A DNA stretch of 64,000 bases from a virus. The position numbers and the translations under genes were made by a program. The DNA is taken from the UHGV virus genome UHGV-0311442. One strand, given 5' to 3'. The notes under the pieces were generated by a model that worked only from the letters and a program-made list of their open reading frames with translations, was not told the DNA's origin and made no database searches. Numbering within the stretch: position 1 is the stretch's first letter; every line of letters begins with the position of its first letter. Shown here piece after piece: positions 42,281-42,312 of the stretch.

Positions 42281-42312
42281 AACTCTCACCTAGGTAATAT
42301 ATATCTGAAATC
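42281..42312 (-). promoter_or_regulatory. Conserved promoter-like motif, instance c (best match)
   Basis: Minus strand TTCAGATATATATTACCTAGG-TGAGAGTT; about 45 nt upstream of the lipoprotein ATG. Confidence 0.45.

Follow-up and report, generated by a model that had tools for sequence, protein, structure and literature searches.

One group of jumbo phages follows a two-polymerase scheme, in which an injected multisubunit enzyme acts before a second one (PMC7598289, PMC13282480). In Bacillus phage AR9, early promoters were mapped by differential RNA sequencing and primer extension to AAATATATATTAT-(6N)-G+1, and the early transcripts appear within minutes, are insensitive to chloramphenicol and need no new protein synthesis (PMC5312081). 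Transcription in phiKZ and phiR1-37 also starts 6 nucleotides (nt) downstream of an AT-rich element (PMC5312081). A review describes this early element as a highly conserved AT-rich stretch of ~10 nt centred near -10, reports a conserved motif upstream of presumed early operons in every jumbo phage that encodes RNA polymerase, and notes that the motif has proven to be an early promoter wherever transcripts were mapped; early promoters are, according to this review, predictable bioinformatically in every such phage (PMC7598289). The early promoters of 201phi2-1 and phiKZ are conserved at -10, -20 and -30. Here we analyzed a repeated promoter-like block in a 64,000-nt stretch of the virus genome UHGV-0311442 (the window) and compared it with these promoters. 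The six copies found are very probably early promoters read by the virion-packaged multisubunit RNA polymerase (vRNAP) of an SPN3US-like, phiKZ-related jumbo phage.

A probable promoter block in six copies and its relatives in jumbo phages

The original prediction had listed five minus-strand copies of a block joining an AGAT element to a TGAGA element. All five were present (9454-9476, 14764-14786, 16179-16201, 42284-42306 and 50538-50560), and a position-weight matrix built from them and scanned over both strands of the window (128 kb) added a sixth at 35724-35746, GGATAGATATTATTAAAGGGAGA. The six copies scored 20-37 bits, compared to 9.5 bits for the next best site on either strand. Allowing up to 3 mismatches, the degenerate pattern AGATAKATATTAYCTNNGKGAGA gave exactly six matches in the window, compared to 0.01 expected from dinucleotide shuffles. 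This pattern and the matrix replace the literal consensus first proposed, AGATWKATWTT-N9-11-TGAGA, which has no match in the window. Two details of the earlier alignment also changed: the gap from AGAT to TGAGA measures 14 nt instead of 13, and the element in the 16179 copy aligns as GTGACA, with the GTGAGT previously taken for it located further downstream. The repeated unit is 23 bases, and the conserved block extends from -34 to +4 relative to the predicted start:

42284..42321, minus strand: predicted early promoter P42284, the focal copy, covering -34..+4; 23-mer AGATATATATTACCTAGGTGAGA at 42284-42306; predicted start G 42287
50538..50575, minus strand: predicted early promoter P50538; AGATAGATATTACCTTAGTGAGA at 50538-50560; predicted start G 50541
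35724..35761, minus strand: predicted early promoter P35724; GGATAGATATTATTAAAGGGAGA; predicted start G 35727
16179..16216, minus strand: predicted early promoter P16179, a divergent copy; AGATTGATATTATCAATGTGACA at 16179-16201; predicted start G 16182
14764..14801, minus strand: predicted early promoter P14764; AGATATATTTTACTTAGATGAGA at 14764-14786; predicted start G 14767
9454..9491, minus strand: predicted early promoter P9454; AGATATATTTCATCTATGTGAGA at 9454-9476; predicted start G 9457; no terminator directly upstream

A greedy gene call assigned 93.5% of the window to coding sequence and ~6.5% to non-coding DNA. All six copies are wholly within the non-coding fraction and on the minus strand, which is the strand of the downstream gene in each case, rather than being equally frequent in coding DNA or on both strands. 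The distance from the end of the copy to the start codon is 29-50 nt.

The core and its spacing match mapped vRNAP promoters. When AGATATATATTAC-(CTAGGT)-GAGA was compared to the AR9 core AAATATATATTAT, 11 of 13 positions agreed and the 6-nt spacing to a G, which is the mapped start in AR9, was identical; this G is present in all six window copies. Reading the first 50 kb of phiKZ directly, we found that the elements ahead of early genes have the form AGAT(A/C/T)TATATTAC-N6-G or CAGTATATTAC-N6-G, so that the window core AGATATATATTAC-N6-G corresponds to phiKZ AGATNTATATTAC-N6-G. The identical 13-mer AGATATATATTAC occurs upstream of PHIKZ031, and another element precedes PHIKZ054, a gene with a published early-type promoter and primary start. 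The likeness to phiKZ early promoters (Ceyssens 2014, as cited in PMC7598289; Wicke 2021, PMC8244752) thus includes the AGAT-N-TATATTAC core with a G 6 nt later, one copy with the same AGATATATATTAC, an A/T-rich tract upstream of -19, and an intergenic location, on the same strand as the early genes that follow. Both phages have virion and non-virion multisubunit polymerases. Unlike phiKZ, the clade of the window also has a fixed spacer and start (CTAGGT-GAGA) and a conserved upstream TTTC; its leaders are ~45-60 nt, compared to the 31-40 nt reported for phiKZ; and most of its strong copies continue into a stem-loop from +1 that phiKZ mostly lacks. AR9 is a more distant case, as a uracil-DNA Bacillus phage outside the nucleus-forming family for which no GAGA start or 5' hairpin has been reported.

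The block is therefore a member of a known promoter class, the vRNAP early promoters of jumbo phages. Novelty, if any, is confined to the GAGA start and 5'-terminal stem-loop specific to this clade. The earlier suggestion of a phage-specific class distinct from sigma-70 promoters is borne out by the agreement of the core and the spacing to the conserved G with mapped AR9 and phiKZ promoters. The proposal that a modified or phage-encoded polymerase or sigma factor reads the block holds for a phage polymerase, with a multisubunit beta/beta'-like vRNAP in place of the single-subunit or sigma options. A search for a single-subunit RNA polymerase gene, as had been recommended, found none in the annotation of the syntenic SPN3US genome, where only beta/beta'-like subunits are present, and none among the large proteins of the window, a survey that was not exhaustive over the full genome of the phage.

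The identity of the phage fits this class. The window comes from a jumbo phage with patchy ~73% nt identity to Salmonella SPN3US-like and Erwinia jumbo phages, its genes follow, in reverse, the order of the ~43 to 108 kb region of SPN3US, and its 764-amino acid (aa) major head protein has ~80% aa identity to those of Asesino, phiEaH2 and SPN3US. One polymerase gene is within the window, as the second long gene downstream of P35724:

32838..34613, minus strand: phiKZ gp123 homologue, a non-virion RNA polymerase subunit (PDB 7ogp chain E, E 9.4e-18; phrog_2943 'polymerase')

Metagenome contigs of ~225 kb are 96-98% identical to the window, and a 98%-identical 225-kb contig (L181) encodes, 2 kb past the window end, a 433-aa protein 74% identical to SPN3US gp42. 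Mass spectrometry and amber mutants identified SPN3US gp42 as the beta'M subunit of a five-subunit virion RNA polymerase (PMC5694885). Judged by its synteny with SPN3US, the gp123 homologue and the gp42 homologue on this contig, the phage belongs to the group that uses an injected multisubunit polymerase for early genes and a second polymerase later.

By analogy, the injected vRNAP would bind a long, highly conserved AT-rich element in double-stranded DNA, without a sigma-70-type -35/-10 pair. The recognized parts would be AGATATATATTAC at -19..-7, TTTC at -23..-20 and an A-rich block near -29. Transcription would start at the invariant G six bases past the core, so that transcripts would begin with GAGA, making the GAGA of the block the probable transcript start.

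Relatives of the window showed the same arrangement. SPN3US has 17 matches to the degenerate pattern, all on the gene strand, compared to 0 in shuffles, and a lower-threshold matrix scan added one weak minus-strand match (19.5 bits) that overlaps a plus-strand site at 15614. Several SPN3US sites are orthologous to those of the window, upstream of genes tagged gp211, gp200 and gp165 and directly past the capsid gene, and one match is ahead of a non-virion polymerase gene. P42284, which has no mismatch to the clade consensus, corresponds to SPN3US 65413 with an identical 23-mer, with GATA there; P50538 corresponds to 56294, P35724 to 72486, and P14764 to 94239, upstream of a gene for a helix-turn-helix (HTH) protein. 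A near-identical variant of P16179, AGATTGATATTATCTATGTGACA, occurs elsewhere in SPN3US. Among 2.9 million IMG/VR contigs, the exact 23-mer AGATATATATTACCTAGGTGAGA was found in only nine, eight of 150-245 kb and one 7.4-kb fragment, and those compared with the window or known phage genomes all belong to this clade. The degenerate pattern gave 54 IMG/VR loci, mostly in jumbo contigs of the clade, plus several short or mid-sized contigs that were not placed. Scans with AR9- and phiKZ-type patterns returned mostly unrelated AT-rich matches in small contigs and were not used.

The clade set contained 83 distinct sites, which we reduced to 42 non-redundant strong ones. AGATATATATTAC at -19..-7 is nearly invariant among these, and the G 6 nt past the core is present in 42 of 42, in a set selected partly by this position. 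Conservation also reaches into -34..-20, which played no part in the selection: TTTC occupies -23..-20, an A-rich block spans -29..-27, and positions -32 and -34 carry T and A. The conservation at -20 and -30 in phiKZ and 201phi2-1 is similar. The core element of a sigma-less virion polymerase is thus nearly unchanged across Pseudomonas phage phiKZ, enterobacterial phages and even Bacillus phage AR9, which makes it useful for studying how a virion polymerase finds its promoters.

SPN3US also has a weak promoter sub-class, AGATAGATATTATCT-N4-5-G (L003 15614, 23810, 25226 and 28969; L004 21919; L005 1602), which contains a 5-bp inverted repeat, AGATA/TATCT, and has neither a GAGA start nor a 5' hairpin. 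One copy is ahead of a non-virion polymerase gene and the copy at 25226 is inside a coding region. No member of this sub-class was found in the window.

The predicted 5'-terminal stem-loop of the clade

Each copy was originally described as beginning a short inverted repeat, so that transcripts would start with a hairpin, and this was confirmed at the level of the clade. Over the 42 strong sites, a 24-nt folding window gave a mean z-score of about -3 when placed at +1 and -2.6 at -3, where the stem is still inside, while at +3 and +6 the mean shrank to -0.5 or less, and from -6 outward it was -0.9 or weaker. This collapse on shifting indicates that the 5' edge of the stem falls on the start position derived independently from AR9 and phiKZ. 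At 36 of the 42 sites the stem begins at +1..+3, with a mean of 6.9 bp, a 5.4-nt loop and an end near +20.

Pairing was maintained while the sequence varied. Stem positions 5-9 are filled by several Watson-Crick pair types, for example GC 17, UA 11, AU 2 and CG 2 at position 5, and AU 10, UA 9, GC 3, CG 2 and GU 3 at position 7, and departures from GAGA are compensated on the other arm (GAUAGA...UCUAUC; GAGCGUUA...UAACGCUU). A covariance model of promoter plus stem recovered 60 sites in 785 kb of DNA. In the model-fitted alignment, 90.6% of cells were paired, compared to 75.5% in shuffles, and the covariation score was 0.329 compared to 0.130, with 0 of 500 shuffles reaching either value. Sliding the partner by 1-3 columns left 26-57% pairing. 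Of 51 distinct aligned sites, 50 had a paired +1 G. At 36 of the 42 strong sites, folding was better for the sense than for the antisense strand (Wilcoxon p 9e-5); this bias and the G-U pairs argue for an RNA structure over a symmetric DNA site. RNAalifold on a MAFFT alignment of the leaders returned no structure because the loops differ in length, and was superseded by the covariance-model alignment and per-site folding.

Within the window itself, the claim of a hairpin at every copy is correct for P14764 and P50538 (z about -4), while the stems at P9454, P35724 and P42284 are weak and that at P16179 is displaced:

50523..50541, minus strand: 5'-terminal stem-loop of the P50538 transcript, GAGAUUACAUUGUAAUCUU; 8 bp, 3-nt loop, +1..+19; -5.5 kcal/mol, z -4.1
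14748..14767, minus strand: 5'-terminal stem-loop of the P14764 transcript, GAGAGUUACAACUAACUCUU; 8 bp, 4-nt loop, +1..+20; -6.5 kcal/mol, z -4.3
42269..42285, minus strand: weak 5' stem of the P42284 transcript, GAGU...ACUC; 4 bp, 9-nt loop, +3..+19; -2.7 kcal/mol, equal to shuffles
35709..35727, minus strand: weak 5' stem of the P35724 transcript, GAGAC...GUUUU; -2.3 kcal/mol, z about 0
9448..9457, minus strand: minimal 3-bp stem at the 5' end of the P9454 transcript, GAGAAUUCUC, within the palindrome GTGAGAATTCTCAC; -2.2 kcal/mol, z about 0
16156..16172, minus strand: displaced hairpin of the P16179 transcript, GUGAGUCGGUAACUCAC; +11..+27; kept in the orthologous SPN3US leader

The covariance model recovers the P50538 and P14764 stem-loops and still aligns the weak stem of P42284; at the orthologous SPN3US promoter the stem is another, stronger one, GAUAGA...UCUAUC. 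Downstream of P16179, the leader of the 204-aa gene (15520-16134) contains the hairpin at 16156-16172 on the minus strand, GUGAGUCGGU(A/U)AAACUCAC, which is common to the window and SPN3US (~92600); the promoter distances differ between the two phages, and SPN3US has an extra 5'-terminal hairpin before the shared one. No Rfam family was found in the window.

The stem is absent from the weak AGATAGATATTATCT promoters that lack GAGA (mean z -0.4), and in the first 50 kb of phiKZ the 5' end is paired at only 3 of 11 early-type sites (mean z -0.8). The AR9 and phiKZ transcript-mapping papers mention no such stem, and the 201phi2-1 paper reports hairpins only for terminators and small RNAs.

The GAGA start and stem have parallels in other phages. 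Promoters of the T7 group are phage-specific and span ~23 bp through the start site, and their transcripts start with G(G)GAGA. A 5'-terminal stem-loop opens the phi10 leader of T7 and serves in expression vectors to stabilize mRNA. The window clade shares a phage-specific promoter of ~23 bp through the start, a GAGA-type start and a leader with a 5'-terminal stem-loop, but its polymerase would be of the split beta/beta' multisubunit type and the promoter sequences are unrelated. Phage N4 is similar in that a virion-carried polymerase transcribes early genes from injected DNA and each promoter has a short hairpin (PMC5694885, PMC4496689). The N4 hairpin, however, forms in the DNA ahead of the start and serves as the recognition element, whereas the repeat in the window clade is downstream of +1, variable in sequence and RNA-like in its behavior. 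An N4-type DNA-hairpin promoter was rejected, as there is no excess folding upstream of +1 (offsets -45 to -12) and the inverted repeat is at +1..+20.

A possible role is suggested by bacterial mRNAs. RppH and the 5' sensor of RNase E need single-stranded 5' ends, which is the accepted reason that 5' structure stabilizes mRNAs (PMC3997798). Stabilizer stem-loops of the ompA/papA type place a stem within 2 nt of the 5' end, a geometry that blocks both (PMC3997798); given the predicted start, 36 of the 42 strong sites have this geometry (stem within ~2 nt of the 5' end). At strong clade promoters, the first ~20 transcribed bases would fold into a 6-9-bp stem-loop that includes the 5'-terminal nucleotide, and this stem would guard the early messages against the decay that RppH and RNase E initiate at the 5' end. 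Because the stem pairs the first nucleotide and these enzymes need single-stranded ends, we infer that it prolongs the life of the first phage messages by stabilizing their 5' ends. What differs from ompA and papA is that the stem is a standard module on a whole viral promoter class, and its stabilizing effect here is putative, by analogy. Alternatively, the hairpin may act in promoter escape or as a tag read by a phage protein.

We give about even chances to the broader proposal that, in the SPN3US/phiEaH2-like clade, the vRNAP promoter evolved into a fixed promoter-plus-leader cassette with a GAGA start and a compensatorily maintained 6-9-bp 5' stem. If functional, the stem would be a virus-wide, cis-encoded shield of the first mRNAs from host 5'-end-dependent decay, or a tag for a phage factor. 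It also provides an easy way to ask if the early mRNAs of jumbo phages have to be protected against RppH and RNase E, and the GAGA start with stem-loop has a possible engineering use as a strong host-independent early promoter plus leader.

Two other roles were set aside. An intrinsic terminator or attenuator was dismissed by inspection, without a count, as stem energies reach only -5 to -8 kcal/mol and most of the U-rich bases belong to the 3' arm instead of trailing the stem. For translational masking, the stem ends near +20 while the Shine-Dalgarno sequence is mostly at +35 to +50.

Between the 5' hairpin and the Shine-Dalgarno sequence, many early leaders also have a conserved box that reads (A)ATCGACTAT(T/C)A, with CGACYNT as its form in the window. 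It was found at 14730-14740 (CCGACTT) and 50505-50515 (ACGACCT) in the window and at 56338, 65458, 94283 and 223321 in SPN3US. CGACTAT occurs in 6 SPN3US early-promoter leaders, and its genome-wide frequency is at chance (33 found, ~29 expected). The AR9 paper also describes an unexplained motif in early 5' untranslated regions (PMC5312081).

Weighing the polymerase assignment

Several points count against assigning the block to the virion enzyme and the stem to mRNA protection. A literature search returned no 5'-end, timing or polymerase-assay data for SPN3US-like phages, so the polymerase assignment rests on homology with phiKZ and AR9, and the window itself contains no vRNAP gene. Conservation at -19..+4 is partly circular because sites were chosen using those positions. 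The alignment used for covariation was fitted to the model and many of its sites are paralogues or orthologues instead of independent events, so the pairing and covariation numbers overstate independence. A convincing hairpin is present at only two of the six window copies, and RppH inactivation affects only ~10% of E. coli mRNAs (PMC3997798).

The alternative that fares best, although unlikely, is that the block is a middle or late promoter of the second, non-virion polymerase. The window does encode a subunit of this enzyme, neither polymerase has been assigned to the motif by experiment in the SPN3US group, and some 201phi2-1 promoters could not be assigned to a class. However, the window core is almost the same as that of phiKZ and AR9 early promoters, and known non-virion promoters look different: a weak AT-rich/TACT element near -22/-24 marks the phiKZ middle class, TATG at the start is all that phiKZ late promoters have, and those of AR9 read AACA-N6-TA/G. 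No gene identified as structural directly follows any of the six copies, and P35724 heads the operon with the non-virion polymerase subunit, which is needed before that enzyme exists.

The block is very unlikely to be an operator bound by a phage protein, such as the HTH protein encoded after P14764, or another DNA-level signal, with the downstream repeat as a protein-binding palindrome. Besides this HTH gene, such a reading could draw on the inverted repeat AGATA/TATCT in the weak AGATAGATATTATCT variants and on GTGAGAATTCTCAC at 9454, which is a perfect DNA palindrome. An operator does not account for the orientation of the sites, which follows the downstream gene at all six window copies and all 17 SPN3US pattern matches, for the fixed distance to the start codon, or for the homology of the core to mapped promoters. 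The stems past +1 differ wholly in sequence between sites with pairing kept, and their G-U pairs and better folding of the sense strand fit an RNA structure instead of a protein site.

A strong host sigma-70 promoter active at the start of infection is highly improbable: TATATT in the core matches the TATAAT -10 box at 5 of 6 positions and an A/T-rich, UP-like tract is upstream, but consensus scans matched none of the six sites and showed no enrichment (24 found, 24.8 expected; 8 found, 14.6 expected), in line with the originally noted misfit to the sigma-70 layout, the conserved AGAT, TTAC, GTGAGA and TTTC are outside the positions sigma-70 reads, a -35 hexamer is lacking, the exact motif occurs only in this clade of phages, and phiKZ-type phages transcribe without host polymerase (PMC7598289; PMC13282480).

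Operons, terminators and other sites in the window

The genes downstream of the six vRNAP promoter candidates encode small hypothetical proteins, an HTH protein, nucleotide-metabolism enzymes and the non-virion polymerase subunit, which is the content expected of early operons and suggests early timing. P35724 is located directly past the terminator of the major capsid gene and is first in the operon with the polymerase subunit gene, which follows a gene for a 336-aa conserved protein (34624-35634). Other genes served include:

42094..42237, minus strand: 47-aa hydrophobic peptide, encoded first after P42284; the next gene (41224-42039) encodes a 271-aa hypothetical protein
14354..14713, minus strand: first gene after P14764, an HTH DNA-binding protein (phrog_7126, E 1.3e-31)
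14834..15457, minus strand: second gene after P16179, a thymidylate kinase (phrog_761, E 5e-38)

The six predicted start sites in 64 kb provide a testable early-transcription map for an uncultured SPN3US-like jumbo phage common in metagenomes, and mark the genes likely made first, including a non-virion polymerase subunit.

Each copy had been described as following a terminator. A terminator-like hairpin with T-run is upstream of five of the six and is absent at 9454:

50595..50623, minus strand: intrinsic-terminator-like hairpin and T-run upstream of P50538
42441..42468, minus strand: terminator-like hairpin upstream of P42284, scoring on both strands
35776..35799, minus strand: terminator-like hairpin past the major capsid gene, upstream of P35724
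16236..16255, minus strand: terminator-like hairpin upstream of P16179
14803..14828, minus strand: terminator-like hairpin upstream of P14764

This terminator-promoter arrangement would insulate each early unit, with each promoter driving a short operon of the early type. Terminator-like sites are enriched from 35 to 51 kb (42, compared to 17 expected). The hairpins at 35775-35800, 41191-41218 and 42441-42468 score on both strands and have T-runs on each side, and may therefore be bidirectional terminators.

Downstream of P35724, a 16-codon open reading frame, MEKIQFKLKICVIIKI (35646-35696, minus strand), has a good Shine-Dalgarno sequence and ends 13 nt ahead of the start of the 336-aa gene, which lacks an obvious one. 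This arrangement suggests translational coupling, and the open reading frame is kept in close relatives (L012, L013). Tandem small paralogues of 70, 56 and 40 aa are encoded on the minus strand at 40358-40570, 40690-40860 and possibly 41025-41147. At least two share the C-terminal motif QLG(V/L)NKRLK-S-N...(T)E(K/R)RS, and neighbors are separated by a strong terminator-like hairpin.

The sites near 13590 and 22790, previously listed as weaker TGAGAC-only versions of the block, score below 5 bits with 7 of 19 core matches and are not members of the class. Both (13589-13617 and 22782-22809, minus strand) are intergenic and directly past terminators, and have a common TTTTTACAA with GAGAC 19 or 18 nt after TTTAC. 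This TTTAC-N19/18-GAGAC frame is that of the early promoter, TTTC-N19-GAGA, around an unrelated core. A third TTTTTACAAC is at 8076-8083, upstream of a gene starting near 8041, and the orthologous SPN3US spacers of the 13590 and 22790 sites have a loose T-run-TTAC-N18/19-G pattern. The TTTAC-N18/19-GAGAC sites may be a second promoter class.

No close isolate was found among GenBank phages, where the best matches have patchy ~73% nt identity, although the phage is common in metagenomes, with one 147-aa protein found in 411 blocks of an assembly collection. A 1190-aa tail-fibre protein (291-3863, minus strand) matches many tail-fibre families, and the G+C content of this region is 0.48-0.49, compared to ~0.44 in the rest, which would fit a host-range gene that is mosaic and exchangeable.

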